In this document: one piece after another, positions 28,693 to 50,487 of the stretch | Layout: every line of letters begins with the position of its first letter | Numbering within the stretch: position 1 is the stretch's first letter | Assembly (NCBI GenBank): GCA_030827125.1 | Contig: JAURFD010000003.1 | Coordinates: forward strand, 193,607 to 257,606 | Direction: 5' to 3' | DNA from: Candidatus Nanopelagicales bacterium | Lineage (GTDB): Bacteria > Actinomycetota > Actinomycetes > S36-B12 | Length of the DNA stretch: 64,000 bases | Program-made: the position numbers and the translations under genes | Notes under the pieces: generated by a model | Told to the model about the DNA's origin: nothing | What the model saw: only the letters and a program-made list of their open reading frames with translations | The model's database searches: none

Positions 28693-29727
28693 TCAGGACG
28701 CGCCGGTCCCTTCGAGCCACTTGGCAACGACATCAGGATGCGCGGCGATCCACTCCGCGGCCGCCTCCTCCGGAGTCATGCCACCTTCAATGTTGGCGGC
28801 AACCTGGTTCTGATCCTCGTTGGTCCACTCGAAGTTCTGGACCAGGACCGCGAACGGGCTGCCCGAATCCATCAGGGACAGCGTGGCGAGCTTGACCAGC
28901 GGCGTCTCCGGGTAGTCGGTCAGGCCGCTCGCCTCAGCAGCATCGGTCCAGTCATTGGCCGGGAAGTTGATGCGGCAAAGGGGGACCTGTGCCAGGAAGT
29001 TCTGCGGCTCGTAGAAGTAGCCGAGCACCGCAGTCTTATCCTCACTGCCCTTCGTGAAGACATCGATGAGGGCAGCCTCAGAACCGGTGTTGATGACCTT
29101 GAAGTTCAGGTCGTAGGCCTCGATGATCTTCTCGCCAATGGTGGTGTATCCGGGCGGGCCCTCGTACCAGGCACCCTTGTCGCCGCTCTCCGGCGTGACG
29201 AAGAGCTCGGCGTACTCGTTGAGCTTCGTGCCGTCGGTGATGTCCGGGTATTCGTCGCACATCCACTGCGGGACGAACATGCCAATGAGGCCGATGTTGC
29301 CGTTGTAGCCGACCTCGACGATGGCGCCGCGGTCAACCCACTCCTGCCAGCGACCACCGCCCCAGTCCTCGATGATGACGTCGACCGAGCCGGCCTCCAT
29401 GGCGTCATAGGTGACGCTGGCTTCGTCAAGCTGGGTCTGCGTGATGTCGCAGCCCAACTTCTCGCGCGCAACATCACTGAGAACCTGAGCGGAAGCGGTA
29501 TAGCCGACCCACGCGTGCATCGCAACACCCCAGGATCCGCAGTCGACCGGGGCGGCCTCCGATGAGGATTCCGAAGAACTTTCCGATGCTGACGAACTTG
29601 AACTCTCCGACGCCGAAGACGACGACGAGCCCGCATCCGAATTGACACCGCCGCCGCAGGCCGCGAGGGCCAGTCCGGCAGTGGCGAGCGCGACCATGAG
29701 GCCAGCACCCTTACCTACTCGTTTCAT
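28693..29727 (-). CDS. opuAC: Glycine betaine/choline-type ABC transporter substrate-binding lipoprotein
   Basis: Lipobox LALAAC and a Ser/Glu-rich linker (SSSSSASESSSSSASESSSESSSE), followed by a ProX/OpuAC-like domain with aromatic box residues (W..W..Y). Confidence 0.85.
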   Translation of the reverse strand: MKRVGKGAGLMVALATAGLALAACGGGVNSDAGSSSSSASESSSSSASESSSESSSEAAPVDCGSWGVAMHAWVGYTASAQVLSDVAREKLGCDITQTQLDEASVTYDAMEAGSVDVIIEDWGGGRWQEWVDRGAIVEVGYNGNIGLIGMFVPQWMCDEYPDITDGTKLNEYAELFVTPESGDKGAWYEGPPGYTTIGEKIIEAYDLNFKVINTGSEAALIDVFTKGSEDKTAVLGYFYEPQNFLAQVPLCRINFPANDWTDAAEASGLTDYPETPLVKLATLSLMDSGSPFAVLVQNFEWTNEDQNQVAANIEGGMTPEEAAAEWIAAHPDVVAKWLEGTGAS

Positions 29728-29864
29728 TGATCCTCCCCAGAGGCCACGATCGGTGATGGACCTCGATTGTTGTTGGAATCGTATGGACTTACCTTGGTCG
29801 TTGTCCCGGTCTCCCGGTAACGGATGCGTATCGACGACGATCCTGAGCTCCCACGATGCGGGAA

Positions 29865-31823
29865 TCAGTGCACTCCCTGCCGGCTCTTCTGCGGCCTCCC
29901 CTGGGCGATGCGGTCCAAAATCACGCCGAGCAGCACGATTGCGATGCCCGCGGCAAGGCCCTTGCCCGCCAGTTCGGGCTTGGACTGGCCGACGATCACG
30001 AGGTAGCCGAGGCCACCCGCGCCAACGAATCCTCCGATCACGACAACGGCGAGAACGAAGATGAGGCCCTGGTTGACGCCGAGCAGGATGGACCGCCTCG
30101 AAATCGGAAGTTGCACCTTGGTGATGACCTGCAGGTTCGTCGAGCCCGAAGCAACCGCCGCCTCGACCGTCTCTCTGGGCACTTTGCGAACCCCATCCGC
30201 GACGACACGGATGACGAACGGGGAGGCGTAGACGACACCGAGGACGATGGCGGCGAACCGTGTCGGGCCAAAGAGTGCGAGGACAGGGACGAGATACACG
30301 AAGGCGGGCATTGTCTGCCCCGCGTCCAGGAACGGCTTGAGGAACAGTTCCACGCGCCTACTGCGTCCGGCCCAGACCCCTAGGACGATGCCGATGAGGA
30401 CCACGAATCCGGTAGCAATGAGGATCATCGTGAGGGTCAGCATGGTGTCGTTCCATAGGCCCGTGCCCATGACGAGCGCGAGCAGAATGAACACCAGGAT
30501 GCCTACCGTGCGTCCGGCCAGGATGAAGGCCAGGGCAGTAATGGCGATGAGAGTCAGCCACCAGGGTGAATTGGCGAGGACGTTTTGGAGCGGGTTAAGG
30601 ACGAACAACGTGAACTGTTCACTTCCCGTGACCGTCAGGAATCCGAAGGTGTCCGTAATCCACTCCGAAAGCGCATTGGCCGCATTCGCTATTGGCTCGC
30701 GGAAGTCGAGGCTTTCGGGGAAGACCGCGAACCACAACACAAACCGAGACAGGTAGATAGCGATGACGGTAAACACGGCGAAAATCGCCAGCCCGATGCG
30801 ACGACGAACTTTGACCGCTTCGGCCGCGGCGTAGCCGGACTTGTCTCGGTTGACGGCTGCCGCGGTGGATCGGTCCAGCATGATCGCGAGGAAGACGACC
30901 GCCAGACCGGCCACAACACCGTCGCCCACGTTGCGGATCGTCAGCGCCTCGATCACCGGCTTGCCAAGTCCGGGAGCGCCAATCAAGGCCGCGATCACCA
31001 CGAAGGAAAGAGCGGCCAGTGTGGTCTGGTTGATCGCGAGGATGATGGTGCTCTTGGCCATGGGCAATTGCACCTTGGTGAGCACTTGCCAGCGGGTGGA
31101 GCCGGCCGACTGCGCCGCCTCAATTGGTCCGTCACGCAAAGACTTGATGGCGTGAGCCGTGATACGGATGCAGATGGGGATCGAGTAGATCATCGTGGCG
31201 ATCGTCGCCGAGGCGATACCAATGAGGAAAACCAGCGCGAGCGGCGCAAGATAGACCAGGGTCGGCAGCACCTGCGCCAGGTCAAGCCAGGGCCGCAGGA
31301 CGGACATGACCCGATCGCTTAATCCGGCCCACACCCCAAGAGGCAAGGCGACCGCCAGGGAGAGAACAACGGCACCGATCGTCATGGCCAGCGTCTCCAT
31401 GGTGAGGAGCCACATGCCCAGCATCCCGCACAGCAGGAGCATGAACATGCTGAACAGCGCCATCCGCAGCGTCGAGGTCGCGTAGACGATAAGACCGATC
31501 ACCGCCATCGCACCGAACCAGCCGAGCATGGGGATCACATCGCCCTTGGCGGGGACGGCGATGACACCCATGAAGATCTCGATGAATCCCGAGATGAAGG
31601 CTCGGATCGGATTCAAGAAGTAGAGAAAGATCGGGCTGTCGGCGCGATTGCCGCGAATAGTTGAGGCGACCTCACGCAGGAAAGCCGTGAAGGGCGAGTC
31701 GGACGCCGTCGAAAGTTCCTGAGTCTGCACGCCCTTGAGCACGGTAGCAGTGGCAAACCACACCACGAGGACGATGACGGCCTGGACCCACCGTCGATGC
31801 AAGGCCTCGGCAATTTTCACCAT
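29865..31823 (-). CDS. opuAB: Betaine ABC transporter permease, tandem-fused double permease
   Basis: 652 aa with two ProW-like halves. Each half carries an EAA loop: IEAAQSAGSTRWQVLTKVQLPMA and VEAAVASGSTNLQVITKVQLPIS. Confidence 0.85.
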   Translation of the reverse strand: MVKIAEALHRRWVQAVIVLVVWFATATVLKGVQTQELSTASDSPFTAFLREVASTIRGNRADSPIFLYFLNPIRAFISGFIEIFMGVIAVPAKGDVIPMLGWFGAMAVIGLIVYATSTLRMALFSMFMLLLCGMLGMWLLTMETLAMTIGAVVLSLAVALPLGVWAGLSDRVMSVLRPWLDLAQVLPTLVYLAPLALVFLIGIASATIATMIYSIPICIRITAHAIKSLRDGPIEAAQSAGSTRWQVLTKVQLPMAKSTIILAINQTTLAALSFVVIAALIGAPGLGKPVIEALTIRNVGDGVVAGLAVVFLAIMLDRSTAAAVNRDKSGYAAAEAVKVRRRIGLAIFAVFTVIAIYLSRFVLWFAVFPESLDFREPIANAANALSEWITDTFGFLTVTGSEQFTLFVLNPLQNVLANSPWWLTLIAITALAFILAGRTVGILVFILLALVMGTGLWNDTMLTLTMILIATGFVVLIGIVLGVWAGRSRRVELFLKPFLDAGQTMPAFVYLVPVLALFGPTRFAAIVLGVVYASPFVIRVVADGVRKVPRETVEAAVASGSTNLQVITKVQLPISRRSILLGVNQGLIFVLAVVVIGGFVGAGGLGYLVIVGQSKPELAGKGLAAGIAIVLLGVILDRIAQGRPQKSRQGVH

Positions 31824-31838
31824 CGGTCGCCCCTCAGA

Positions 31839-32912
31839 TCAATCGCCAAGTTCCGGCGAGCGCTCGCCCGCGATCAGAGCAAGGACGTCATCGCTCGACA
31901 CATAGCCCACCATCGTGCCCTTCTTCACGACGCGGATCGGCGGGACCGACGAAATGATGACCGGAGTCGCCTCCTTGATGATCATTGCCGCCTCAAGGGT
32001 CGGCCCGTCATCGGCTTCTCCCTCTCGCAGGGGTCGCGCAATCACCTCCAACGTAAGGACGTGACTCTTGGGAATATCGCGCAGGAAGTCGGCAACGTAG
32101 TCATCGACCGGGTTGAGCACGAGATCCATGGCCGTGCCCATCTGGACAATCGCGCCATCGCGCATGATCGCAATGCGATCACCGAGTTTCATCGCCTCAG
32201 CGAGATCGTGAGTGATGAACACCATGGTCTTTCCGAGTTCTTGGTGCAGGCGTTTTACCTCTGCCTGCATGTCGCGTCGAATCAGGGGGTCCAGTGCGCT
32301 GAACGGCTCATCAAGGAACATCACATCGGGATCCACCGCGAGAGCTCGAGCAAGGCCAACACGCTGCTGCATGCCGCCGGACAGCTGCTCAGGGTAGGAG
32401 GATCCGTACCCGGCCAGTCCAACGAGTTGGATGACCTCCTCGGCGCGGGCATAGCGGACATCCTTCTTGACGCCCTGGATCTCCAGTGGGTACGCGATGT
32501 TGTCGATGACCTTGCGGTGCGGCAGCAGCCCGAAGTGCTGGAAGACCATGGAGAACTCGGTGCGGCGCAAGTGCCGCAACTGCTTCTCATTGGCAGCGAG
32601 GATGTCGTCACCCTCGATGAGCACCTCACCTGAGGTGGATTCGATGAGCCGAGTCAGGCAGCGTACAAGGGTCGACTTGCCCGAGCCCGACAGACCCATC
32701 ACGACGAAGACCTCACCATTGTCGACATCGAAGGTGACGTCCCGGACGGCGGCGGTACAGCCAGTTTCGGCGAGGAGCTCGTCCCGGCTGAGATTTGCCA
32801 GCGGTGTGCCCACCACCTTGTCCGCCTGCGGCCCGAAGACCTTCCACAGATTGCGGACGGAAATGGCGGGGCCCGCCCCGGTCGTGGACTCACTCACCAG
32901 GTCCTCCTTCAA
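31839..32912 (-). CDS. opuAA: Betaine/proline ABC transporter ATP-binding protein
   Basis: Walker [10 protein letters not shown], signature LSGGMQQR, Walker [12 protein letters not shown], and a C-terminal regulatory extension. Confidence 0.9.
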
Positions 32913-34398
32913 ACCAGCCGCTGGGAGCAGCGTTCAGGCGTCGATAGACGTGCTTGGCTTCGAGGTACTCGTGGAAGCCTGTGGGTCCGAGTTCGCGGCC
33001 GACCCCGGACTGCTTGAAGCCACCCCATTCAGCCTGCGGGAGATAGGGGTGGAAGTCGTTGATCCAGATGGTTCCGTGGCGCAGCGAAGCGGCCACTCGC
33101 TCGGCCTTGCCCGCGTCATTCGTCCACACCGCGCCGGCAAGTCCATACATGGTGTCGTTGCCCAGAGCGATCGCCTCATCCTCGGTCCTGAACGTCTCCA
33201 CGGTGAGCACCGGCCCGAATGACTCGTCTTGGACGCAGGTCATCTCGGTGCGGCATCCGTCAAGCACGGTGGGACGGTAGTAGTGCCCGTCGGCGAGCGC
33301 GGGGAATTCGATCGAATTGGGACGTTCACCACCGCACCGAAGAACCGCGCCCTCGGCGAGTGCGGACGCCACGTAGGCCTCGATCTTCGCCAGATGCTGC
33401 GCTGAGATGAGCGGACCGGTCTCCGCGGCCTCATCGAACGGGCCGCCCAGTCGGATGCGCTGTGCTCGCCGCACGACCTCATCGACGACGACGTCGTGCA
33501 CCGACTCCTCCACGAGGAGTCGAGCTCCCGCCGAACACACCTGACCGCTATGGAGGAACACGGCCGTGAGCGCGTTGTCGATGGCCGCATCAAGATCGGC
33601 GTCGGCGAAGACGATGTTGGGATTCTTGCCACCGAGTTCGAGTGCGACCTTCTTCACCGTAGCGGCCGCATCGGCCATGATGCGGCGGCCTGTGAGGAGC
33701 CCTCCCGTGAACGACACCATGTCGACATCCGGGTGAGTCGCGAGCGGGGCACCTGCCGTGACGCCCGCCCCGAGGACGAGGTTGCCGACCCCCGGAGGAA
33801 GCCCGGCCTCGGCCAGCAGTGTGACCAGATGGATGGTCGTGCTCGGGGTGAGTTCGCTGGGCTTGAGCACGAAGGTCGTGCCCGCAGCAAGAGCCGGCGC
33901 CACCTTCCAGGCTGCCTGGAGCAGTGGGTAGTTCCAGGGCGTAATCAGGCCACAGACACCGACCGGCGAGTACTCAATCCGCGATCGCACTCCGGGGTCC
34001 GCCACATCCACGACGCGGCCGCCCACGGCATCGCCGCAGGCCAAGCCGGCGAAGTAGCGGAAACAACTCGCGACGTCGGCCACGTCGTAGCGAGACTCGA
34101 CGATGCGCTTGCCCGTGTCGAGCGACTCAAGCCGTGCGATCTCTTCGGTGTCACGCTCCAGCAGATCTGCCACCCGCGCTAGGAGCTGACCACGCTCGGA
34201 GAGCGGGACGGACGACCAGCGGCCGTCGTCAAAGGCCCGGCGGGCTGCCTCGATGGCACGCACCGTGTCGACGCTGGTGGCCTCGTCGACCACGCGGACA
34301 AGGTCGCCGTTGGCCGGGCAACGAATCTCGCGGGTGCCGCCCTCTGCAGCGGTCACCCACTCGCCATCAATGAACAGGTCAGGCATGCGTGTCAGCAT
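32890..34398 (-). CDS. betB: Betaine-aldehyde dehydrogenase (ALDH family)
   Basis: Catalytic Glu LELGGKNP and catalytic Cys GQVCSAG. Overlaps betA at its start and opuAA at its end. Confidence 0.85.
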
Positions 34399-36058
34399 TC
34401 TCGCGACGGCGCCGATAGAACGGCACGTGTTCGGCGGGTAGCGGCGTGTTGCCCTTGATGATGTCGGCCGCCTTCTCCGCCATCATCATCACCGGCGCAT
34501 AGATATTGCCGTTGGTCACATAGGGCATGACGGAGGCGTCGACGACACGCAGACCCGCCGTGCCATGCACCCGCATCGTGAGGGGATCCACGACGGCCAT
34601 GTCATCGATGCCCATCTTGGCCGTGCAGGAAGGGTGATATGCCGTCTCGCCGTCGCGGCGGACCCACTCGAGGATCTCCTCGTCAGAACTCACCTCGTGC
34701 CCTGGTGAGATCTCTCCACCGCTGTACGGTGCGAAGGCGGGCTGCTCAAGAATCTCCCGCGTCTTGCGAATCGCCTCGACCCACTCGCGCCGATCCTGCT
34801 CGGTCGAGAGGTAGTTGAACGTGAAGGCGGGCTCGGCGAAGGGGTCCGGGCTGGTGATCCGCAACGAGCCGCGGGCGTCGGAATACATCGGCCCGACATG
34901 CACCTGGTAGCCGTGTCCCTCCGCGATGGAGGTGCCGTCGTACCGCACCGCGATCGGCAGGAAGTGGTACATGAGGTTGGGGTACTCCACGTCCTCGTTG
35001 CTCCGGATGAAGCCGCCCGCCTCGAAGTGGTTGGACGCGCCCGGACCGGATCGCAGGAACAGCCACTGCGCGCCGATAAAGGGTCGCCGCCAGAACTGCA
35101 GGTTGGGATTCAGCGACACCGGCTGGGTGCAGGCGTGCTGAACATAAACCTCGAGGTGGTCTTGGAGGTTCTCCCCCACTCCCGGCAGGTCGTGGATCGG
35201 ATCGACGCCGACAGCGCGGAGATCATCGGCCGGTCCGATGCCGGACAGTTGCAGGAGCATGGGCGAGTTGAAGGCACCACCGCACAGGATCACCTCGGAA
35301 CCACGTACGGCGATCGGGCGCTTGCCGCCGAGGGCAACTTCGACGCCGCGGGCGGTCGGAGTGCCGCTCGAGGTGTCCATGATGATGCGCGTGACATGCG
35401 CCCGCGTCTTGACGGTGAGGTTGGGCCGCGACATGGCCGGCCTGAGGTATGCCTTGGCGGCTGAGTAGCGACGACCGTTGTGCAAGGTGCCGTCGAAGGC
35501 CGCAAAGCCTTCCTGCTTGTAGCCATTGACGTCGGCCGTGAGTTCATGACCGGCTTCCTGCACGGCTTCAAAGAACGCGGAGAAGAGGGGATTCTCCACC
35601 TTGCCGCGCTCGAGGATCAGCGGACCGTCCTTGCCGCGCCACTCGTCAGCCCCGGCGCGACAGTCCTCCATCTTCTTGAAGTAGGGCAGGCAGTTCGCGT
35701 AGCTCCACGAATCCATGCCCGGGTCAGCGGCCCAGCGTTCGTAGTCCAGCGGATTGCCCCGCTGGAAGATCATCCCGTTGATGCTGCTCGAACCCCCGAG
35801 AACCTTGCCACGGCCGTGATAGACGCGGCGACCGTTCATGAACGGCTCGGGCTGGGACGAGTACATCCAGTCGTAGTACTTGTTGCCGATGGGGAACGTC
35901 AGCGCCGCCGGCATATGGATGTAGACATCAAAGGGATAGTCCGGTCGTCCCGCCTCCAGGACCAAAACCGTGGTGCCCGGGTCCTCTGTGAGCCTCGCGG
36001 CGAGCGCCGAGCCGGCTGAGCCGCCCCCGACAATGATGTAGTCGTATCCCTTCGGCAT
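34379..36058 (-). CDS. betA: Choline dehydrogenase (GMC flavoprotein)
   Basis: [22 protein letters not shown] fold, [18 protein letters not shown], and C-terminal GMC signature with the active-site His region. Confidence 0.88.
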
Positions 36059-36086: not shown

Positions 36087-37526
36087 TCAGTCCCCGAGTT
36101 CCGCACGCCGGCGTACGACGTACTCGTGCAACTCCTCGCGGATCGCCTCATCGAGAGGCGGGGGCTCGTACTCCTCGAGTCGCTTCTCGTAGATCTCGCG
36201 AGCTCGCTCCTCGGTATCGCGTGCCCCGAGTCGAGTCCAGCGCTCAAAGTTGTCGCAGTTCCACAGCCAGGGCCGATAGAAGCAAGTGCGGAACCGCTCC
36301 ATCGTGTGTTCGGCGCCGAGGAAGTGCCCGCCGGAGCCCACCTCCTCATGCGCGCCGAAGGCAAGCTCCTCATCGCTGAAATGCACCGGAGTGAATTCAT
36401 GCTGGAGGGACTCAAGCGCCTGGGTGTCCATGACGTACTTCTCGAAGGAGGAGACGAGTCCACCCTCGAGCCATCCAGCCGCATGCATGACGACATTCGT
36501 GCCAGCGAGGAATGTCGGCAAGAGCGTCATCAGGGTCTCGAATGCCGCCTGCGCGTCGGGCACCTGAGCCGAGTTCATGCCCCCGCCGGTGCGGAACGGC
36601 AGCCCGAAGTGCCGAGCAATCTGGCCGGTGCAGAGCAAGCCGATCGCGGACTCCGGGGTGCCGAACTGCGGAGCCCCTGACTGCATGTCGATATTGGACA
36701 GGAAGGAGCCGAAGACCACCGGCGCACCCGGATTGATCAGTTGCGTCAGAGCGATGCCGGTGAGGGTCTCCGCAATCTGTTGCGCCAGGGTGGCGGGGAT
36801 GGAGACCGGCGACATGGCACCCATGAGGAGGAACGGCGACAAGATGACGGGCTGGCGAGCCCGGGCGTAGGCGAACTGCGCCTCAAGCATGCGGTCGTCC
36901 CAGCGCAGCGGCGAATTGCAGTTGATGAGGGAAATGCAGACCGGGGTCTCCTCGATCGCCTCTCGCCCGCCGAAGAGAATTTCGCTCATGCGAATCGTGT
37001 CTTCTGCGCGTTCCCCGCTGACAACATTTCCCATGTAGAACTTGTCGGTAAGGGTCATGGCGGCATAGAGCATGTCGAGGTGGCGTGAATCCAGCGGCGC
37101 ATCGTTGGGCTCACACACGACGCCGCCCACGCTGTCCATCACGTCGAAGGACTGAGCGAGCTTCGCGAAGTCGCGGAAGTCCTCCATCGTGCCGTCGGCT
37201 CGCCGGTCTCCACGCCGGACGAACGGAGGGCCGTAAACGCTCGAGAACACCATGCTGTCGCCACCGACATGCACACTGCGCTCCGGGTTGCGCGCCTGGA
37301 GGTCGAATTCGCGCGGAGCCTTCGCGACCTGCTCAAGGACGAACTCAGGATCGAAGAAGACCTTGTCGCCGTCAGTGCGCATTCCCGCAGCGGCAAAAAT
37401 TTGCACCGCCTCCGGTGCCATGAACTCGACGCCGAGTTCGGACACAATGCGTCGCCATCCACGATCGAGGACAGCCATGGAGTCCTCGGAGAGGATCTCG
37501 TAGCGGGGCATGGTGTTCCGGAACAT
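36087..37526 (-). CDS. MttB-superfamily (trimethylamine methyltransferase family) substrate:corrinoid methyltransferase, non-pyrrolysine, MtgB-like
   Basis: Uninterrupted 479-aa ORF with no in-frame TAG. Family-typical length and sequence blocks (LINCNSPLRWD, GAMSPVS, GWLEGGL). GAGGAG RBS 7 nt upstream. First gene of the bet/opu operon. Confidence 0.88.
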   Translation of the reverse strand: MFRNTMPRYEILSEDSMAVLDRGWRRIVSELGVEFMAPEAVQIFAAAGMRTDGDKVFFDPEFVLEQVAKAPREFDLQARNPERSVHVGGDSMVFSSVYGPPFVRRGDRRADGTMEDFRDFAKLAQSFDVMDSVGGVVCEPNDAPLDSRHLDMLYAAMTLTDKFYMGNVVSGERAEDTIRMSEILFGGREAIEETPVCISLINCNSPLRWDDRMLEAQFAYARARQPVILSPFLLMGAMSPVSIPATLAQQIAETLTGIALTQLINPGAPVVFGSFLSNIDMQSGAPQFGTPESAIGLLCTGQIARHFGLPFRTGGGMNSAQVPDAQAAFETLMTLLPTFLAGTNVVMHAAGWLEGGLVSSFEKYVMDTQALESLQHEFTPVHFSDEELAFGAHEEVGSGGHFLGAEHTMERFRTCFYRPWLWNCDNFERWTRLGARDTEERAREIYEKRLEEYEPPPLDEAIREELHEYVVRRRAELGD

Positions 37527-37584
37527 GGCAACTCCTCGAAACGGGCCTCTTGACCGACTTGTCGCGCGATCCTACACTCGACTT

Positions 37585-37602
37585 ATGGAATACTGCTTCC
37601 AT
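37585..37602. promoter_or_regulatory. Candidate operator: perfect inverted repeat ATGGAA-N6-TTCCAT
   Basis: Sits centrally in the 130-bp divergent mttB/iclR intergenic region, the most AT-rich stretch I noticed in the window. It overlaps TANNNT-type -10 candidates on both strands. Confidence 0.4.
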
Positions 37603-37656
37603 ATTGTGAAACATTTTTTGGCCGGAATCTCGGACGACTGAATCGGGAGTCATCAG

Positions 37657-41333: not shown

Positions 41334-43186
41334 CAGCTTCGCATCACGACGACCTACCCGCCCGGATCACGCTGCGCTACGAACCGGCGGGCAAGTCGGT
41401 TCGTGTCCCCAACGGCGTTAGCGTCTTCGACGCGGCACTGTGGAATGGCGTCGCGGTGGACTCCACCTGCGGTGGGCACGGAACCTGCCGCAAGTGCAAG
41501 GTACGGATCGTCGATTCCGAGACGCCTGTCGCTGCGGCCGACGAGCGCGCCTTCACCCCCGAGCAGTTGGCTGACGGTTGGCGGCTGGCCTGTCTGACCA
41601 CCGCGCATCACGATCTCGTCATTGACGTCCCTGAACTCACCACTCGGCCCAAGGCAGCCACCGTCGGCGTCGGCCGACAGGTCATCCTGCGGCCCGCCGT
41701 ACAAAAGCGCTTCCTCGAGTTGGACGAGCCCACGCTCGCCGATCAACGCACCGACATCCAACGCGTGCGCGACGCCATGGACGACCTCGAGCTCGCCGTC
41801 GATATCGAGGTGTTGCGAACGCTCGGTCGAGATCTGCGCGCGGCGAATTGGGCAGTCACCGCCGTCGTCGTCGGGACGCACCTCGTCGCCCTGGAGGCCG
41901 GCGACACCACCGACCGGCGGTTCGGCGTCGCCATCGACCTTGGCACCACCACGGCCGTAGCGACTCTCATGGATCTGTCCACCGGGGCACCCGTGGCCGT
42001 GTCATCGATGCTCAACCGCCAGCAGCCGTTCGGAGCCGACGTCATCAGTCGCATCAGTGCCACCATGCTCGATCCCGAAGCCCTCGGCCGGCTTCGCGAC
42101 CTCGCGCAGTCGACACTGGCCGATCTCACGGTCGACGTCCTCGTCGAGGCGCGCGTCACCCCCGACGAGGTGTACGAGGTGGCGCTCGCTGGCAACGCCA
42201 CCATGATGCAACTGCTCCTCGGGATCGATCCTGAGCCGCTGGGCGTGGCCCCTTTCATCCTGGCCAGCGCCCACTTCGAAGGCCTGCGGGCCGCAGACCT
42301 CGGCGTACCGATTCATCCGCGGGCGCGAGCAACGGTCTTCCCTGCGCTGGGCGCCTACGTGGGAGGCGACATCGTCGCCGGGGCACTCGCCGCAGGGATG
42401 GATCGCGACAAGCGACTGCGCCTGTTCATCGACATCGGGACGAACTGCGAAATCATCCTCGCCGACGGTGAGCGCCTCGTGTGCACGGCGGCGCCGGCCG
42501 GACCGGCGTTCGAGGCCGCATCCATCTCCAGCGGCATGCGCGCTGCGCCCGGTGCTATCGAGGTCGTGACGATCGACGACGAGGGACTGCATCTCGAGGT
42601 CATCGGTGGCGAGGCACCCGTCGGCCTATGCGGATCGGGCCTGGTCGACGTGGTCGCCGAGCTCGCGCGCGTCGGCTGCATCGATCCCTCCGGGCGCTTC
42701 CTCAGCGATGAGCGGCTCGCCGAGGTGCATCCGGCCCTTGCTCCGCGCTTCATCAATCGTGACGGCGAACGCGTCTTCGTTCTCGCCACAGCTGAGGAGT
42801 CCGGCGACGGCAGTCAAGTGGTCCTGAGTCAGCGGGACGTGCGGGAACTGCAGTTTGCCAAGGCCGCGATCTCCACCGGTTGGCGCTTGCTCGCAGAGGA
42901 AATTGGCGTTGAGGCCAACGACATCCAGCAGGTACTCCTGGCCGGATCCTTCGGCACGTACCTCTCGGCCAAGAGTGCGATCACCATCGGCCTGGTGCCC
43001 AAGATCCCGGCAGCGCGCATCGTCAGCGCGGGGAATGTCGCCGGCGAGGGCGCGAAGATGGCGTTGCTGTCCGAACCGGAGCGGCACGGTGCGCTCGCTC
43101 TCATCGACGAGATCGACTACGTCGAGTTATCTGACCGCACCGACTTCAACGATCGGTTCGTCGATGAGCTCGCCTTCCCCGTCTGA
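41330..43186 (+). CDS. Corrinoid reductive activase (N-terminal 2Fe-2S ferredoxin plus ASKHA ATPase, RamA/RACo-like)
   Basis: CGGHGTCRKCKV..C ferredoxin motif followed by a ~500-aa ASKHA-type domain (DLGTTT, DIGTNCE). ATG overlaps the preceding TGA. Confidence 0.85.
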   Translation: MTASHHDDLPARITLRYEPAGKSVRVPNGVSVFDAALWNGVAVDSTCGGHGTCRKCKVRIVDSETPVAAADERAFTPEQLADGWRLACLTTAHHDLVIDVPELTTRPKAATVGVGRQVILRPAVQKRFLELDEPTLADQRTDIQRVRDAMDDLELAVDIEVLRTLGRDLRAANWAVTAVVVGTHLVALEAGDTTDRRFGVAIDLGTTTAVATLMDLSTGAPVAVSSMLNRQQPFGADVISRISATMLDPEALGRLRDLAQSTLADLTVDVLVEARVTPDEVYEVALAGNATMMQLLLGIDPEPLGVAPFILASAHFEGLRAADLGVPIHPRARATVFPALGAYVGGDIVAGALAAGMDRDKRLRLFIDIGTNCEIILADGERLVCTAAPAGPAFEAASISSGMRAAPGAIEVVTIDDEGLHLEVIGGEAPVGLCGSGLVDVVAELARVGCIDPSGRFLSDERLAEVHPALAPRFINRDGERVFVLATAEESGDGSQVVLSQRDVRELQFAKAAISTGWRLLAEEIGVEANDIQQVLLAGSFGTYLSAKSAITIGLVPKIPAARIVSAGNVAGEGAKMALLSEPERHGALALIDEIDYVELSDRTDFNDRFVDELAFPV

Positions 43187-43778
43187 GAGCCGACCGCGAG
43201 CGCACGCGTCGCGCGCCATCATCACCTGCGGCGCCATCGGGCGCGAGGCCCTGGACTGGGCAGCGGGTCAGGACGTTGCGGTTTATCCACTCCCCCCGGT
43301 CATGCACAACCATCCCGAACAGATCGCGCCCGCCGTCGAGGCCGAGATCATCCGACTGCGCGACCTACATGACGAGATCGCTATCGCGTACGCCGACTGC
43401 GGAACCTACGGCGCCCTCGATGAGGTGTGCACTCGGCACGGAATCACGCGCCTACCCGAACGGCACTGCTACGACCTGCTGTCGACACCCGACGCGCTGG
43501 ACGCGCAGTGGGCCGCCGAGCCCGGCACCTTCGTGCTCATCGACTTCACCGTGGTGGCCTTCGACCGGATGATTTGGCGCGAACTCGGACTTGATCGCCA
43601 TCCGGAACTTCGCGACGACTACTTCGGCCACTTCACCAAGGTCGTCTGGCTGGCGGGTCGGCGTACCCCCGAGATGGAGCGGGCAGCCCACCGGGCGGCG
43701 GAGCGCCTCGAACTCCCGCTGGAGATCTGGCCGGTCGGGGCCGCCCTGGACAACCACCTGACCGAGTTGTTCACCTGA
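43164..43778 (+). CDS. DUF1638-domain protein (function unknown; family assignment from memory)
   Basis: About 204 aa. Last gene of the corrinoid operon, overlapping the activase end by 23 nt. Start choice is uncertain. Confidence 0.65.
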   Translation: MSSPSPSESRPRAHASRAIITCGAIGREALDWAAGQDVAVYPLPPVMHNHPEQIAPAVEAEIIRLRDLHDEIAIAYADCGTYGALDEVCTRHGITRLPERHCYDLLSTPDALDAQWAAEPGTFVLIDFTVVAFDRMIWRELGLDRHPELRDDYFGHFTKVVWLAGRRTPEMERAAHRAAERLELPLEIWPVGAALDNHLTELFT

Positions 43779-43816
43779 CGCTTATTCCTCCGATCCGAAT
43801 CTCCCGCTCGGCGGGA

Positions 43817-43836: not shown

Positions 43837-43875
43837 GGAATCTGATGTACAAAGCCCGACATAACTGATATATCT

Positions 43876-44550
43876 ATGTCCGTGACGGCCATTCCCCTCG
43901 TTCAACCCGACCTCGCCGAAGGGGCCTCCCAGGCGGATCGGGCCTACCAGGAGATCCGCGCGCTCATCGTCACCGGCGAACTCGGCCCCGGCTCGTTGAT
44001 CAGCGAACCGGACCTCCAAGGGCAACTTGGTCTGGGCCGCACCCCGATTCGCGAGGCCCTGCGCACCCTCGCGCATGAGCGACTCGTCGAGGTCTACCCC
44101 CGCCGCGGCATGTTCGTTGCCGCACTCGATCCGCGCGACCTTTCGGCCCTGTCCGAGGTCCGTGAGGAGAGTGAGCCCTTCGCGGCCCGCCTCGCCGCCG
44201 AACGACGCACCGAGGAAGACCTAGCCGAGATCGAGCAACTCCTGCTCACCATCGACGTCATGGCGTCCGCGCCCGACGCGCGCGGTCTCATCGAACTTGA
44301 CCAGCGCATCCACCATCAGGTCTACCGGTGGGCGCACAACGACTTCCTGCAAGCCGTATGCGCCCAGCACTACATGCACGCACTGCGCATTTGGTTCCTC
44401 GCGCTCGACCGCGTGCCCAATCTCAACGAGGCGGTCACCGAACATCGCGACCTCCTCCTTGCCATCCGCGACGGCGACCCCGAAGTCGCCGCCGAAGTCA
44501 TGTCCCGCCACGTGCGCGGATTCGAAGCAGAGATCCGCCGCGCCATCTGA
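43876..44550 (+). CDS. GntR-family regulator (FadR/FCD subfamily)
   Basis: wHTH SEPDLQGQLGLGRTPIREALRTLAHERLV plus an all-helical C-terminal FCD-like domain. Confidence 0.85.
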   Translation: MSVTAIPLVQPDLAEGASQADRAYQEIRALIVTGELGPGSLISEPDLQGQLGLGRTPIREALRTLAHERLVEVYPRRGMFVAALDPRDLSALSEVREESEPFAARLAAERRTEEDLAEIEQLLLTIDVMASAPDARGLIELDQRIHHQVYRWAHNDFLQAVCAQHYMHALRIWFLALDRVPNLNEAVTEHRDLLLAIRDGDPEVAAEVMSRHVRGFEAEIRRAI

Positions 44551-44589
44551 AACCACCGCACAACCCGAGTGACAACGAAAGAGGAAGCA

Positions 44590-47097
44590 ATGAGCAGTCT
44601 CCCGAGCAAAGCCAAGTGCGTCGTCATCGGCGCCGGCATTGTGGGCAACTCGATGGTCTACCACCTGGCGCGTCTGGGCTGGACCGACATCGTCCAGATC
44701 GACAAGGGTCCGCTGCCCAACCCGGGCGGCTCCACCGGTCACGCGTCGAACTTCATCTTCCTCGTCGATCACAACAAGGAGATGGCCCAGCTCACCCTGG
44801 ACAGCCTTCGCCAATACATCGAACTCGACACCTTCTTCGAGTCCGGTGGCATTGAGGTGGCCCGCACCGCCGAGCGCATGCAGGAGTTGAACCGCCGCGT
44901 GACCTCCGGCAAGTCCTGGGGCGTCGATGGCATGGCCATTTTGACCCCCGATGAGGTCAAGGGGATGGTGCCCTTCATCGATGAAAGCGTCATCCTGGGC
45001 GGCTTCTACACCAAGGGTGTCGGAGTCTGCGATTCATTGCGCGCAGGCACGCTCATGCGAGAGAAGGCCATTGAGATGGGGGCCCTGCAGTCCTTCGCGA
45101 ATGTCGAGGTCAAGGACCTCACGGTCGAAGATGGCCACATCAAGGCCGTGGTCACCGATCAGGGCACCATCGAGGCCGACTACGTCGTCATCGCGACCGG
45201 CTGCTGGAGCCGCCAACTTGCCGCCATGGCCGGGGCCAACATCCCGCTCACCCCTGCCGTTCACCAGATGAAGGACATCGGACCCGTAGCGATGTTCGCC
45301 GACGCCAAGGGTGACCTCGAATACCCGATCGTCCGCGACATGGACACCAACATGTACGAGCGTCAGCACGGCACCGGCCTGGAGATCGGCTCCTACGCCC
45401 ACCGACCGATCCTGTACGACGCCGAGGAGATCCCTTCGAACGCCGAGGCTGCCCTCTCCCCCACCGAGTTCCCGTTCACCCCCGACGACTTCGCCGACCA
45501 GGACGAGCACGCCCTTGAGCTCATGCCCGAAATCGTCGGCGACGAGGGCGCCCAGGAGAAGTACGCCATCAACGGCCTGCTCTCCCTCACCCCGGACGGC
45601 ATGCCGATCCTTGGCGAGACCCCGGAGGTCAAGGGTCTGTGGTCCGCCGCCGCCGTGTGGGTCAAGGAGGGCCCGGGTGTCGGTCGTGCGCTGGCGGAGT
45701 GGATGGTCCTCGGTGAGCCCGAGATCGACCTGCACGCCTCCGATATCGCCCGCTTCTACCCCGAGCAGACCACGACCAAGCACATCAAGGATCGTGCGAA
45801 CGAGGGCTTCAACAAGACCTACGGCATCGTCCACCCGGCCGAGCAGTGGTCCTCGAACCGTGGCGTGCGCAAATCGCCGTACTACGACCGCGAGGCCGAC
45901 CTCGGCGCTGTCTTCTACGAGACCGTGCTGTGGGAGCGTCCTTTCTGGTATGCGTCCAACGCCGGCCTAGTGGAGAAGTACGGCGACGCCGTGATGCCAC
46001 GCACCGCCGAGTGGGAGTCGCGCTGGTGGTCGCCGATCATCAACGCCGAGCACCTGCAGATGCGCGAGACGGCCGGTTTGGTCGACCTCACGGCCTTCGC
46101 CCTCTTCGACATCACCGGCCCCGGCGCCCTGGCGACCGTCCAAGGCGTGTGCATGCGGCAGATGGATGTCGCCGTCGGCAAGGTCGTTTACACCCCCGTC
46201 CTGCTGCCCAGCGGCGGGTGGCGCTCTGACCTCACCGTCATGCGGTTGGGCGAAGACCACTTCCGCGTCGTCACCGGTGGCGCGCACGGCATGTCGGACT
46301 TCAAGTGGTTCAAGGACCACGCGGCCGAGGGCGCGACGTTCACCAACCTCACCGACGACATCTCCACCCTCGGTGTCTGGGGCCCGAACGCCCGCGCCAT
46401 CGTGTCCGCGGTGACCGACGCCGACATGAGCAACGAAGGCTTCCCCTTCGGCACCTGCCGCGAGATCACCATCGCTGGCAAATCCGTCCTCGCCTCGCGC
46501 ATCTCCTACGTCGGTGACCTCGGTTGGGAGCTCTACGTCTCCATGGCCGACGGTCCGGCGGTGTGGGACGCCATCTGGGCGGCGGGTCAAGAGCACGGCC
46601 TCATCCCCGTCGGCATCGGCGTGTACGGCACGACCGGTCGCCTGGAGAAGGCCTACCGCGCGTACGGACCCGAACTCGAGGGCGACTTCAACGTCATCGA
46701 GGCTGGCATGGCCACCAAGAAGGTCAAGGACGCCGACTTCGTCGGCAAGGAGTCCTACCTGCGTCACCGCGAAGAGGAGCCCGCAGCGACGCTGTGCGTT
46801 CTCACCGTCGATGACCACACCTCCTCGACAGGCGAGAAGCGCTACATGATGGGTGGTGAGCCGATCCTCACGCTCGAGGGCGAGTCGATCGTCGATCCGC
46901 ATGGCCGTATCTCGTACGTCACCTCCGCTGGCTCGGCCCCATCGGTCGGCAAGCACATCCTGATGACGTACCTCCCTGCCGAATACTCCACACCCGGCAC
47001 CAAGTTGGCTGTGGAGTACCTCGGCGAGCAGTACCCGGTGACCGTAACCGGCTCCGGCGCACTCTTCGACCCGAACAACGAACGGATCTTGTCGTAA
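44590..47097 (+). CDS. Dimethylglycine/sarcosine dehydrogenase-family enzyme (FAD oxidoreductase fused to a GcvT-like folate-binding domain)
   Basis: VVIGAGIVGNS FAD fold and GGSTGHA (covalent-FAD His region). C-terminal aminomethyltransferase-type domain. ATG at 44590 follows GAAAGAGGAAG. Confidence 0.88.
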   Translation: MSSLPSKAKCVVIGAGIVGNSMVYHLARLGWTDIVQIDKGPLPNPGGSTGHASNFIFLVDHNKEMAQLTLDSLRQYIELDTFFESGGIEVARTAERMQELNRRVTSGKSWGVDGMAILTPDEVKGMVPFIDESVILGGFYTKGVGVCDSLRAGTLMREKAIEMGALQSFANVEVKDLTVEDGHIKAVVTDQGTIEADYVVIATGCWSRQLAAMAGANIPLTPAVHQMKDIGPVAMFADAKGDLEYPIVRDMDTNMYERQHGTGLEIGSYAHRPILYDAEEIPSNAEAALSPTEFPFTPDDFADQDEHALELMPEIVGDEGAQEKYAINGLLSLTPDGMPILGETPEVKGLWSAAAVWVKEGPGVGRALAEWMVLGEPEIDLHASDIARFYPEQTTTKHIKDRANEGFNKTYGIVHPAEQWSSNRGVRKSPYYDREADLGAVFYETVLWERPFWYASNAGLVEKYGDAVMPRTAEWESRWWSPIINAEHLQMRETAGLVDLTAFALFDITGPGALATVQGVCMRQMDVAVGKVVYTPVLLPSGGWRSDLTVMRLGEDHFRVVTGGAHGMSDFKWFKDHAAEGATFTNLTDDISTLGVWGPNARAIVSAVTDADMSNEGFPFGTCREITIAGKSVLASRISYVGDLGWELYVSMADGPAVWDAIWAAGQEHGLIPVGIGVYGTTGRLEKAYRAYGPELEGDFNVIEAGMATKKVKDADFVGKESYLRHREEEPAATLCVLTVDDHTSSTGEKRYMMGGEPILTLEGESIVDPHGRISYVTSAGSAPSVGKHILMTYLPAEYSTPGTKLAVEYLGEQYPVTVTGSGALFDPNNERILS

Positions 47098-47861
47098 TGG
47101 ATATCGCTGTCTGCATCAAGCGCGTACCCCTATCGCCGGGGCGGTGGACCCTCACCGCCGACGGCACCGAGATCGATACCAGCAGCAGTGCGATGGGCTG
47201 GACACTCAGCCCGCACGAGGAATGCGCCACAGAGGCCGCCGTCCAGCTCAAGGAGACGGACGGTGGCACCGTGACGGCATTCACTCTCGGCACACCGGAG
47301 TCCAGCGAGCAGATCCGCGAACTTATGGCGGTCGGCGTGGACCGCGGCGTACTGCTCGAGACCGACGGCGCCGAGTGGGATGCCCAGGCCACGGCCGCGG
47401 CACTCGCCGAGGCGATCCGCGCCGACGAGACCGACTTCTCGGCTGTCATCTTGGGCACTGAGTCGGCCGACGTCTCTGGCTATCAGGTGGGTGTGCGACT
47501 CGCCCACGCGCTTGGCTGGCCCATCGTCACCAACGTCAAGGGCCTGTCGGTGAGCAACGGCGTCGCTCGATGCGAGCGCGTCGTCGGCTCCGAGCGCGAG
47601 GTCTACGAGGTCTCCCTGCCCGCGGTCATCGCGGTCAAGGACGGCGTCAACATCCCGCGTTATCCGTCGGTGCCGGGCCGCATCAAGGCGCGCAAGAAGC
47701 CCATCGACACCGCGAACCCGACCCGCTCGGATCCACGCGTGGAGAAGGTGAGCCTGGCCCTCCCGCCGCAGGAGGCGGGCACCGCCGAGATCATCGGCAA
47801 CGGTCCGGACGCGGCTCCCCGCGTCGTGGAAATTCTCAAAGAGATCGGAGTGCTCGCATGA
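47097..47861 (+). CDS. etfB: Electron transfer flavoprotein beta subunit
   Basis: MDIAVCIKRVP start. ATG overlaps the dehydrogenase TAA by 1 nt (TAATG). Confidence 0.9.
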   Translation: MDIAVCIKRVPLSPGRWTLTADGTEIDTSSSAMGWTLSPHEECATEAAVQLKETDGGTVTAFTLGTPESSEQIRELMAVGVDRGVLLETDGAEWDAQATAAALAEAIRADETDFSAVILGTESADVSGYQVGVRLAHALGWPIVTNVKGLSVSNGVARCERVVGSEREVYEVSLPAVIAVKDGVNIPRYPSVPGRIKARKKPIDTANPTRSDPRVEKVSLALPPQEAGTAEIIGNGPDAAPRVVEILKEIGVLA

Positions 47862-48817
47862 TCCTCGTTTACGTCGACCACGATCGAGGCACTCTCGACG
47901 AACTCTCCCTGCAGGCGATCACCGCGGCCCGCGGGCTGGACTCCGACGTCCAGGCCGTCATGGTCGGGGCGGATGCCGTGGCCCTGGCACCGCGACTCGG
48001 TGAGTTCGGTGTAGGCACCGTGCACGTGGCCGTGGATCCGAGGATCACCGACTACACGCCCATGGCCTGCGGTCGAGCCCTGGCGAGTGTCGCGCAGCAA
48101 TTCCACCCGGCAGCCGTCCTGGCAGTGGGTTCCCCGCGCGGCAACGAGGTGCTCGCGCACGCGGCGGCCATCCTCGACGAGCCCTTCGCGGCCGAGTGCA
48201 CCGAGATCTCCCTTGGTGGCGACGTCGCCACGGTGACGCGCAATCGCTGGGCCGGCAACGTCCTCGAGACGGCCCGAGTGCATGCGTCGATGCTCATCGC
48301 CTCCGTCACCGCCCATGCCTTCGCAGCGGAGAGCATCCCGGGCGCGGCGCCAGCGGCTGTCGTGGAGTTCTCCCCCGAGCTCACCGAGGCTGATCTGGCC
48401 GTACGCGTTATCGATCGCGTCGGCAGCGGTGGTGGTGGGGTGAGCCTCGCTGAGGCCAAGGTGGTCGTCAGTGGCGGCCGCGGGGTCGGCGAAGGCGGCT
48501 TTGGCCCGCTGGAGGAACTCGCCGAACTACTCGGTGGCACCGTCGGCTGCTCGCGAGTCGTCACCTCGGCTGGTTGGCGCCCGCATGCCGAGCAGGTGGG
48601 GCAGACCGGCACCAAGGTCGCCCCCGAGCTCTACTTCGCGATCGGCATCAGCGGTGCGACACAGCACATTGCCGGCTGCAAGAACGCAAAGACGATGATC
48701 GCGATCAACACCGATCCTGAGGCGACGATCATGTCGTACGCCGACTACGCCATCGTCGGCGACGCCGGGCAGATCATGCCCGCGATCGTTGACGCCGTAC
48801 GCGCCGCGAAAGGCTAG
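47858..48817 (+). CDS. etfA: Electron transfer flavoprotein alpha subunit
   Basis: ATGA overlap with etfB. C-terminal FAD signature [34 protein letters not shown]. The track ORF is extended 288 nt upstream. Confidence 0.9.
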
Positions 48818-48819
48818 AC

Positions 48820-50487
48820 ATGCCCTCTGATATCGAGATCGCACAAGCGACCACCATGGACCCGATCATCGCGGTCGCTGCCGGACTCGGGATCCCCGAT
48901 TCAGCGTTGGAACCGTACGGTCACTACAAGGCCAAGGTGTCCAACTCCTACCTTGATGGGTTGCCCGAACGGCCTGAGGTGAAGTTGATCCTCGTGACCG
49001 CCATCAGCCCCACCCCTGCCGGTGAGGGCAAGACGACCACCACAGTCGGTCTTGGTGATGGCCTTCGCCAGATCGGCAAGAACGCGATGATCTGCCTGCG
49101 CGAGCCGTCGTTGGGCCCCGTCTTCGGCATGAAGGGCGGAGCCGCCGGTGGGGGCTACGCGCAGGTCGTCCCGATGGAGGACATCAACCTGCACTTCACC
49201 GGGGACTTCGGGGCGATCGGGCTGGCCAACAATCTGCTAGCGGCACTGATCGACAATCACATCCACCACGGCAACGCTCTCGGGATCGACGTGCGGCGGG
49301 TGACGTGGAAGCGTGTCGTCGACATGAACGACCGCGCGCTGCGCGACATCGTCGTCGGCCTCGGCGGTCCAGGCAATGGCTACCCGCGCGAGGATGGCTT
49401 CGACATCGTCGTAGCGTCCGAAGTCATGGCGATCTTCTGCCTGGCCACCTCGCTGGAGGATCTCCAGCAGCGCCTCGGCGACATCGTCGTCGCCTACGAC
49501 CGCGACAAGCAGCCGATCCGTGCACGTGACCTCGACGCCGACGGCGCCATGACGGTCCTGCTCAAGGACGCCTTCGCACCGAACCTCGTGCAGACCCTTG
49601 AGCACACTCCGGCGTTCGTCCACGGTGGCCCCTTCGCCAATATCGCGCACGGCTGCAACACGGTCGTCGCTACGCGCGGCGCGCTGAAGTTGGCCGAATA
49701 CGTCGTGACGGAGGCTGGCTTCGGCGCCGACCTCGGCGCGGAGAAGTTCGTCGACATCAAGTGCCGCAAGTCCGGCCTGCGTCCCTCGGCCGCGGTGATC
49801 GTGGCCACCATTCGGGCACTGAAATACCACGGTGGTGCCGATCTGAAGACGATCACCGAGGAAGACCTCGGCGCCCTGGAGAAGGGCATGGTTAACCTTC
49901 GCCGTCATATCGAGAACGTTCGCGATGTCTACGGCATCCCCTGTGTGGTGTCGATCAACCAGTTCGTGTCCGACACCGACGCCGAGATCGATCTCCTCCG
50001 CCGCCTTACGGCTGAGGCGGGTGCTGAAGTCGTGCTCGCGAGCCACTGGGCCAACGGTGGAGCAGGCGCGACCGACCTGGCGCACAAGGTGGTCGAGTTG
50101 TGTGAGCAGCCCAGCGAGGTCACCTTCGTCTACCCCGACGATCTCTCCCTGTGGGAGAAGGTCGAGGCGGTTGCCAAGCGCGTCTATCGTGCGAGCGAGG
50201 TCACGGCCAACGCCAAGGTCCGCGCACGACTGCGCGAGTTGCAGGACGAGGGCTACGGCAATCTGCCGGTCTGCATTGCCAAGACGCAGTACTCCTTCTC
50301 CACCGACGCGGCCCTACGCGGTGCGCCCGAGGGGCACGTGCTCGACATCCGCGAGGTGCGACTGTCGGCCGGCGCCGAGTTCGTCGTCGTCGTGTGTGGC
50401 GACATCATGACGATGCCCGGTCTGCCGAAAGCTCCGGCCGCGCAGAAGATCAACCTCGTCGACGGAGCGGTGGTCGGCCTCTTCTAG
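48820..50487 (+). CDS. fhs: Formate--tetrahydrofolate ligase
   Basis: 555 aa. P-loop [15 protein letters not shown] and family blocks throughout. Starts 2 nt after the etfA stop. Confidence 0.95.

Follow-up and report, generated by a model that had tools for sequence, protein, structure and literature searches.

The B12-dependent demethylation of glycine betaine has been described in the aerobe Ruegeria pomeroyi, where MtgB, MtgC, MtgD, RamA, a DUF1638 protein and MetF2 lead methyl groups into tetrahydrofolate (THF)-linked one-carbon (C1) oxidation, as established by proteomics and knock-outs (Mausz et al., PNAS 2025, PMC12478193). In other Proteobacteria, the Mtg genes are often co-located with genes for dimethylglycine (DMG) and sarcosine demethylation and for C1 oxidation, and the Actinomycetota appear in that work solely as 5% of the TARA mtgC reads (PMC12478193). 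A related oxidation has been reported for SAR11, in which metF, folD, fhs and an NAD-dependent formate dehydrogenase (FDH) oxidise betaine methyl groups to CO2 with production of ATP and reductant, based on assays with 14C-methyl betaine and of ATP (Sun et al., PLoS One 2011, PMC3160333). Our study concerns a 64-kb stretch of DNA from a Candidatus Nanopelagicales bacterium (GenBank assembly GCA_030827125.1, contig JAURFD010000003.1), hereafter called the window, and specifically a 22-kb block at positions 28,693-50,487. We consider it probable that this block serves the catabolism of choline and glycine betaine in an uncultured freshwater "Ca. Nanopelagicales"-type actinobacterium, with oxidation of the methyl groups via folate to formate. 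A literature search for reports of this system in the Nanopelagicales or Actinobacteria yielded nothing specific.

Gene content and layout of the block

Gene families were assigned with Pfam and NCBIfam profiles, using the NCBI curated cut-offs for the latter, together with comparison to PDB structures. All the genes named in the first-pass annotation of this DNA were found where that annotation had placed them. Its description of a single contiguous line, listed in gene order, needs qualification: the block is real and conserved and its genes are present, but it is divided into at least three transcription units on two strands with two dedicated regulators, the left six genes lie on the minus strand, and the genes for IclR, the pterin-binding methyltransferase, RamA, DUF1638 and GntR had been left unnamed. 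The first unit is listed here from mtgB, which is transcribed first, to the binding lipoprotein; distances are in nucleotides (nt) and protein lengths in amino acids (aa).

36087..37526, minus strand: MtgB-like non-pyrrolysine MttB-superfamily methyltransferase (PF06253, 639 bits; uninterrupted 479-aa open reading frame, ORF)
34379..36058, minus strand: BetA, choline dehydrogenase (TIGR01810, 845 bits, cut-off 732)
32890..34386, minus strand: betB, betaine-aldehyde-dehydrogenase (BADH)-like aldehyde dehydrogenase (PF00171, 542 bits; overlaps betA by 8 nt)
31839..32897, minus strand: ABC ATPase of the ProV / betaine-proline-choline family (TIGR01186, 341.8 bits, cut-off 326.6)
29865..31823, minus strand: fused double permease of 652 aa (two BPD_transp_1 stretches)
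28693..29727, minus strand: OpuAC-family substrate-binding lipoprotein (PF04069, 103 bits; lipobox LAAC at the N-terminus)

These genes include all the parts of a predicted OpuA/ChoXWV-type importer, that is, a ProV-type ATPase, a ProW/ChoW-type permease and a binding protein of the OpuAC fold, with choline or betaine as its candidate ligand. The permease has the choline permease TIGR03416 as its best NCBIfam match (346 bits, just under the cut-off of 363), and the binding lipoprotein reaches only 43 bits against the choline-specific TIGR03414. The best NCBIfam match of BetB is BADH (TIGR01804, 599 bits, under the cut-off of 668.6). The ATPase gene has a GTG start with GAAGGAGGA upstream and overlaps betB by 8 nt. 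The second unit is transcribed divergently from the first.

37657..38442, plus strand: IclR-family regulator (PF09339 and PF01614; overlaps mtgC by 4 nt)
38439..39095, plus strand: MtgC, corrinoid (B12-binding) protein (PF02607 and PF02310; 3-nt gap to metV)
39099..39551, plus strand: MetV, cysteine-rich small subunit of a MetVF-type methylene-THF reductase (MTHFR) (PF12225, 83 bits; eight Cys)
39548..40495, plus strand: MetF, MTHFR catalytic subunit of the MetVF type (PF02219, 81 bits; overlaps metV by 4 nt)
40470..41333, plus strand: MtgD, pterin-binding methylcorrinoid:THF methyltransferase (PF00809; NF005719, 311 bits, cut-off 259)
41330..43186, plus strand: RamA/RACo-type reductive activator (Fer2, RACo_linker, Raco_middle and RACo_C_ter; best NCBIfam match AcsV, 424 bits)
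43164..43778, plus strand: DUF1638 protein of 204 aa (PF07796; overlaps ramA by 23 nt)

The mtgD gene is preceded by an AAGGAG ribosome-binding site and overlaps metF by 26 nt and ramA by 4 nt; its product is named after the Ruegeria protein, the corresponding enzyme of Desulfitobacterium hafniense being called MtgA. In the case of the DUF1638 gene, public metagenome gene calls give a protein of 158 aa that starts at the ATG at 43302. We place the start at 43164 because a conserved N-terminal CGAI motif, common to the homologues of Nocardioides and of the related locus L067, lies upstream of that ATG. The gene call for MetF on identical metagenome contigs is 315 aa long. The third unit begins with its own regulator.

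43876..44550, plus strand: GntR/FCD-family regulator upstream of dmgdh (PF00392 and PF07729)
44590..47097, plus strand: dmgdh, DMG dehydrogenase/oxidase-family FAD and folate enzyme (DMGDH; DAO, FAO_M, GCV_T and GCV_T_C domains)
47097..47861, plus strand: etfB, electron transfer flavoprotein (ETF) beta subunit (PF01012; 1-nt overlap with dmgdh, TAATG at 47097)
47858..48817, plus strand: etfA, ETF alpha subunit (PF01012 and PF00766; overlaps etfB by 4 nt)
48820..50487, plus strand: fhs, formate-tetrahydrofolate ligase (NF010030, 895 bits, cut-off 652; 2 nt after etfA)

Two junctions noted before, at which dmgdh overlaps etfB by 1 nt and a gap of 2 nt separates etfA from fhs, are both exact. Taken together, the genes would outline the following route. 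The OpuA/ChoXWV-like ABC system would import choline or betaine, and BetA and the BADH-like dehydrogenase would yield glycine betaine. The MtgB-like enzyme would shift one methyl group onto Co(I) MtgC, from which the pterin-binding methyltransferase would hand it to THF, while RamA and the DUF1638 protein would hold the corrinoid in its active state. MetVF would convert methyl-THF to methylene-THF; the DMGDH-type enzyme, which fits after the MtgB-like enzyme because dimethylglycine is the product of betaine demethylation, would take the second methyl group as methylene-THF and pass its electrons to the co-translated EtfBA. Formyl-THF would be formed by a FolD encoded elsewhere, Fhs would free formate with a gain of ATP, and a nearby NAD-type FDH would turn the formate into CO2. 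Domain content, translational coupling and comparative genomics support this route, from import through BetA/BetB, the corrinoid module, MetVF, DMGDH/ETF and Fhs to FDH, better than any other considered here.

Conservation of the block across relatives

A scan with MetF, using one genome per species, identified 17 close loci, all of them in freshwater Actinomycetota or "Ca. Nanopelagicales" metagenome-assembled genomes, and the gene order is kept in all 17 as far as their contigs reach. Four loci (L008, L012, L018 and L062) together span the block between the permease and fhs, both included. A protein identical to the MttB-family protein of the window is encoded on no fewer than 23 metagenome contigs, where its neighbours are identical too, and these identical-strain contigs come from four separate metagenome sources (two from ENA, one from JGI and one from Logan). 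The joined arrangement is still kept in L062, whose proteins have 50-86% amino-acid identity to those of the window and whose nucleotide identity is about 63-83% per 300-nt bin. For the comparison of chromosomal sites we used the flanking GMPP gene as an anchor. In three further contigs, with 72-83% GMPP identity, the block occupies this site as well and adjoins GMPP-fbiB-fbiA/fbiC-whiB, whereas two Nanopelagicales contigs (L152 and L153, 66-68% GMPP identity) read GMPP-whiB-GT2-DUF5719 and lack both the block and the fbi genes there. Altogether, gene order and site are shared by about 20 related "Ca. Nanopelagicales"/Actinomycetota contigs. Since it is present at 72-83% GMPP identity and absent at 66-68%, the block is all-or-none at this site. 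The comparative check suggested along with the first-pass annotation has in this way been carried out: close relatives keep the block as a unit, and two of the more distant ones lack it at the site.

These comparisons bear directly on the possibility that the sub-clusters lie together through history alone, without forming one pathway. The division into three or more transcription units on both strands, with two local regulators, would agree with it, as would the fact that the modules occur separately in wider taxa. The Mtg/Bet/Opu genes of Nocardioides lack dmgdh-etf-fhs within 10 kb, and in L077, a contig from a lower-GC actinomycete, a gene for a BHMT-like homocysteine S-methyltransferase is divergent from gntR-dmgdh-etfB-etfA-fhs-fdhG-fdhB (3811-12567) and there are no Mtg genes. 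Nevertheless, each module yields what the following one uses as its substrate, the modules are still joined after divergence to 50-86% amino-acid identity, and the block is all-or-none at its chromosomal site, which makes a purely historical association highly improbable. L077 combines the DMG/ETF/Fhs/FDH module with another enzyme for the first demethylation, and the DMGDH of this lower-GC lineage was found on 162 contigs.

The corrinoid module and the substrate of the MtgB-like enzyme

Judged by its protein families, the corrinoid module is a full MtgB/MtgC/MtgD, RamA and DUF1638 component set. MtgC possesses the DxHxxG motif in the form DVHDIG (residues 102-107), has MtgC NF047996 as its best NCBIfam match (201 bits, under the cut-off) and is 93-99% identical in amino acids across relatives. 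Among PDB entries, the MtgB-like protein scores 457 bits with 4yyc, 401-403 bits with the D. hafniense MtgB structures 2qne and 9yce, in an end-to-end alignment, and 140 bits with pyrrolysine-type MttB; against the pyrrolysine-type profile TIGR02369 it reaches 283 bits, under the cut-off of 525.

Special attention was given to the residues of the substrate site. In D. hafniense MtgB, residues Y97, R312, H348 and F356 bind betaine, as shown with mutants and a structure containing the bound substrate (Picking et al., JBC 2026, PMC13080624). The protein of the window keeps three of them, as Y98, R312 and H348, and has Gly at position 356; the local sequence (residues 348-357) is HAAGWLEGGL, as opposed to HTAGILQYFM in D. 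hafniense. The same motif, with invariant W352 and G355-G356, is present in the actinobacterial clade (120 of 120 close homologues), and in the alphaproteobacterial homologues checked, one encoded on a Paracoccus plasmid and 4yyc, and for this reason we interpret Gly356 as a feature of the clade and not as a lesion. The motif may be the mark of an "aerobic-type" subfamily. W352 could stand in for the second aromatic ring of the betaine site. Glycine betaine is assigned as the putative substrate from genomic context, namely the co-transcription with betA and betB and the dimethylglycine-type enzyme encoded downstream. Since mtgB heads the operon that contains betA, betB and the importer, with 8-nt overlaps, the enzymes that make betaine and the one proposed to use it would be co-expressed.

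An alternative is that the corrinoid module acts on another quaternary amine, such as proline betaine, carnitine, gamma-butyrobetaine or a choline derivative, and that the adjacency of betAB is only loosely related to the substrate. The exchange of F356 for Gly within HAAGWLEGGL speaks for this alternative. Other MttB-family enzymes, which act on different compounds, retain R312 and in many cases H348, whereas the aromatic pair is not kept (PMC13080624); in addition, the Paracoccus homologue with the same motif adjoins a carnitine 3-dehydrogenase gene, and the number of MttB paralogues with no assigned specificity can reach seven in aerobes (PMC12478193). We nevertheless find it unlikely, for mtgB shares a tightly spaced operon with betA and betB in all relatives, the downstream enzyme is of the dimethylglycine type, and Y98, R312 and H348 are invariant, as is W352, which could supply the second aromatic ring.

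MetVF, the dimethylglycine-type enzyme and ETF

The two-subunit MetVF type of MTHFR is known from anaerobes. We considered whether MetVF might be unique to this lineage and rejected the idea: a plasmid of Paracoccus methylovorus, an aerobic alphaproteobacterium, has metV and metF inside the same corrinoid module, with 48% and 35% identity, respectively. On this plasmid (p1, 361.8-391.2 kb, L148), an mttB-family gene is divergent from genes for a B12-binding protein, DUF1638, MetV, MetF, a methyltransferase and RACo, and the whole adjoins carnitine 3-dehydrogenase and ABC transporter genes; it may represent a carnitine-linked version of the module.

Comparison with L005, L006 and L012 shows that, within the block, conservation is far lower for MetV, MetF and IclR than for the proteins encoded next to them. 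In L012 the identities are 99% for MtgC, 72% for MetV, 76% for MetF and 95% for MtgD. At the nucleotide level, L012 is a mosaic, with 92-98% identity over the importer and betB versus 80-88% over mtgB-mtgC, and the dip at metVF is only moderate. Two explanations fit this divergence of metV, metF and iclR equally well: gene replacement or recombination within the block, or faster protein evolution under weak constraint on MetVF.

The dmgdh product is closest to the DMG oxidase of Arthrobacter (1pj5), with 499 bits over the full length, and the covalent-FAD residue His48 of that enzyme aligns with His51 here. Because dmgdh overlaps etfB by 1 nt, ETF is the predicted electron acceptor, which would make the enzyme a dehydrogenase. 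A more far-reaching version of the pathway can also be proposed, in which electrons from the acetogen-type MetVF would pass through EtfBA to quinone, so that ETF and quinone would receive the electrons of both the first and the second methyl group, the DMGDH-like enzyme would also strip sarcosine, and the block plus a housekeeping FolD would form a self-contained three-methyl line. We regard this version as doubtful; if true, the route from MetVF to EtfBA would solve the problem of the unfavourable methyl-THF/NAD+ step under oxic conditions.

Fhs, formate dehydrogenase and the direction of C1 flow

The first-pass annotation had also pointed to an NAD-type FDH operon near the block and had proposed that Fhs, running in reverse, releases formate. 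The operon is present, with FdhA scoring above its cut-off, and a maturation gene lies beside it.

54285..59097, minus strand: NAD-type molybdenum FDH, fdhG-fdhB-fdhA (FdhA TIGR01591, 906 bits, cut-off 666; NuoF-like beta subunit; gamma subunit best match NF004638)
59228..60052, plus strand: FdhD sulfurtransferase, FDH maturation (NF001943, 285 bits, cut-off 269)

The THF-linked C1 oxidation set within the window includes MetVF, Fhs and FDH; FolD was not found in it. A metagenome scan with Fhs returned mostly unrelated phyla because this protein is highly conserved, and the informative hits were L077, L085, L097, L121 and L142. Contigs of lower-GC actinomycetes have dmgdh-etfBA-fhs-fdhGB(A) as an uninterrupted string. 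In L077, fhs is followed by fdhG-fdhB, and fdhG begins one base after the fhs stop codon; L142 has fhs-fdhG-fdhB-fdhA, with beta and alpha subunits 67-70% identical to those of the window; and in L097 and L121, fhs is followed by fdhD-fdhGBA. Over these four loci, the FDH orthologues have 60-72% identity to the window in the beta and alpha subunits and 43-51% in the gamma subunit. The joined fhs-fdh genes of these relatives, along with the presence of purU in the Nocardioides cluster, support a flow in which Fhs works towards formate and FDH acts next, as the proposal of formate release had it, and the FDH operon is likely to be the terminal step of the pathway.

The direction of Fhs is also the point at which a non-catabolic explanation can be weighed, according to which betaine would be kept as an osmolyte, methyl-THF would go to methionine, and Fhs would fix formate for purine and C1 needs. 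BetAB and OpuA-type importers are classical osmoprotection genes, and Fhs is reversible. MtgC and MtgD are, moreover, also essential for methionine synthesis in Ruegeria (PMC12478193). However, the relatives described above join fhs to FDH genes, the Nocardioides PurU, a hydrolytic enzyme, releases formate only, and the conserved block also contains MetVF, DMGDH-ETF and Fhs; the homocysteine-binding module (MtgE/BHMT) is not in this block, and the host lineage is a freshwater one by its record names. This explanation thus seems to us quite improbable.

Regulation

The spacer between mtgB and iclR has the features of a divergent control region.

37550..37615, no strand assigned: promoter-like TTGACC-17-TACACT, then the palindrome TGGAA-N6-TTCCA plus one more (third) half-site

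The AT-rich palindrome TGGAATACTGCTTCCA and its third half-site (37586-37615) are located directly downstream of the promoter-like element, which is itself conserved. The motif is kept in 12 related intergenic regions, that of Nocardioides included, and has no second perfect copy in the window; we propose it as the probable operator through which IclR would control both divergent operons. GntR would probably control dmgdh-etfBA-fhs, and the gntR gene adjoins dmgdh also in L008, L012, L062, L067 and L077. An operator shared by all the units was considered and rejected, given that the IclR-type palindrome is found once only, in the mtgB/iclR spacer, and neither upstream of dmgdh nor upstream of the FDH operon. 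Because dmgdh-etfBA-fhs has its own GntR/FCD regulator, co-induction of all the parts is not guaranteed.

Observations that weigh against the proposed route

It is important to consider several observations that count against the catabolic choline/betaine route. The scores of BADH, MtgC, the permease and the binding protein are all under the NCBI curated cut-offs. The position equivalent to F356 of MtgB is Gly in the protein of the window, in its 120 close homologues and in that of Paracoccus. EtfA is slightly nearer to bifurcating ETFs (6fah and 5ol2), and EtfB is slightly nearer to the non-bifurcating ETF of Paracoccus. The 64-kb window contains no FolD, no soxBDAG or other sarcosine-oxidising enzyme and no gcvPTH, its unannotated gaps all being shorter than 1.2 kb and its leftover ORFs matching other families or none; the first-pass annotation had correctly named FolD, sarcosine oxidase and glycine cleavage as missing links there. 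A tRNA-Thr gene, lacI, msiK with an RNA leader and an SDR gene lie between fhs and the FDH operon, which is on the opposite strand. Lastly, with two different regulators, the sub-operons need not be co-induced.

Boundaries and neighbouring features

The window has a GC content of about 66% and includes the actinobacterial landmarks mtrA/mtrB/lpqB, whiB, DUF5719, DUF3499 and the F420 genes fbiC/fbiA/fbiB. Of the lineages compared, only those with the choline block have fbiC, fbiA and fbiB (22594-27508 in the window) between GMPP and whiB. The block itself is bounded as follows.

28640..28669, minus strand: hairpin terminator at the end of the minus-strand operon (13-bp stem, 12 G-C pairs, T-rich tail; inverted repeat I5)
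50499..50559, plus strand: hairpin terminator closing the plus-strand unit (-46.5 kcal/mol, z = -8.5 versus shuffles)
50614..50686, plus strand: tRNA-Thr(TGT), right edge of the block (ARAGORN and Rfam; 127 nt 3' of fhs)

The position of the tRNA gene led us to consider a mobile island, which we rejected: a second copy of the 3' end of tRNA-Thr was not found in the window, and neither were an integrase or transposase or long flanking direct repeats. A recent mobile insertion is unsupported for these reasons, and also because relatives with GMPP identities as low as 72% have the block at this site too. At the Rfam gathering score, the window has no cobalamin, THF or glycine riboswitch, the tRNA-Thr and an msiK leader being the only matches. 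This leader (58 bits, 52849-52907) lies upstream of a MalK-type ATPase gene (51772-52845), which on that basis we identify as msiK, unrelated to C1 metabolism; we take msiK to be the shared sugar-ABC ATPase of actinobacteria. At 60480-63975, near the right-hand limit of the window, genes for a prepilin peptidase (A24) and a TadZ/CpaE-like ATPase suggest a Tad-type pilus locus; several ORFs between them lack a Pfam match.

Comparison with described systems

The closest described system is that of Ruegeria, with which the block shares a PF06253 methyltransferase, a separate corrinoid protein, a pterin-binding methyltransferase, RACo/RamA, DUF1638 and a dedicated MTHFR. The differences are the host, which belongs to the Actinomycetota; the gathering of the genes in one block with betAB and an ABC importer; the MTHFR, which is a two-subunit MetVF encoded between mtgC and mtgD; the coupling of dmgdh to etfBA and fhs; and the absence of mtgE from the block. 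The MttB-family protein of the window has 45-48% amino-acid identity to proteobacterial MttB homologues. With the MtgB/MtgC/MtgA system of D. hafniense the block has in common a non-pyrrolysine TIM-barrel methyltransferase, a cognate corrinoid protein and a methyl-THF-forming methyltransferase, but the host is an apparent aerobe, and the genes are tied to betAB, DMGDH and ETF instead of to anaerobic energy metabolism.

SAR11 follows the same metF-folD-fhs-FDH logic as the pathway put forward in the first-pass annotation; it differs in its proposed BHMT-type betaine demethylation with no corrinoid system (PMC12478193) and in having its genes scattered over several loci. The DMG oxidase of Arthrobacter globiformis (1pj5) has the same four-domain architecture as the DMGDH of the block, although it is an oxidase that uses O2, whereas an ETF acceptor is predicted here. 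Among the actinobacteria, Nocardioides sp. LMS-CY (CP076104.1, L066) has an mtgB gene divergent from iclR-mtgC-mtgD-ramA-DUF1638, with betB-betA and an ABC importer adjoining and with the same palindrome, and its MttB is 75% identical to that of the window. It differs in having no metVF between mtgC and mtgD, purU in place of fhs, a second IclR and a BCCT transporter, and no dmgdh-etfBA-fhs within 10 kb.

If the proposed route is true, B12-dependent demethylation of glycine betaine and choline, shown in 2025 for marine Proteobacteria only, would reach the freshwater Actinomycetota; choline and betaine could then plausibly provide energy in lakes and rivers ("methylovory"), and these organisms would have an added cobalamin demand. 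Its compact and conserved arrangement also offers a clean gene set for heterologous reconstitution, comprising the importer, BetAB, MtgB/C/D, RamA, DUF1638, MetVF, DMGDH, EtfBA and Fhs. Set beside the systems described above, the block most likely represents a new host and not a new mechanism, that is, an unusually compact actinobacterial version of a pathway already described in other phyla.

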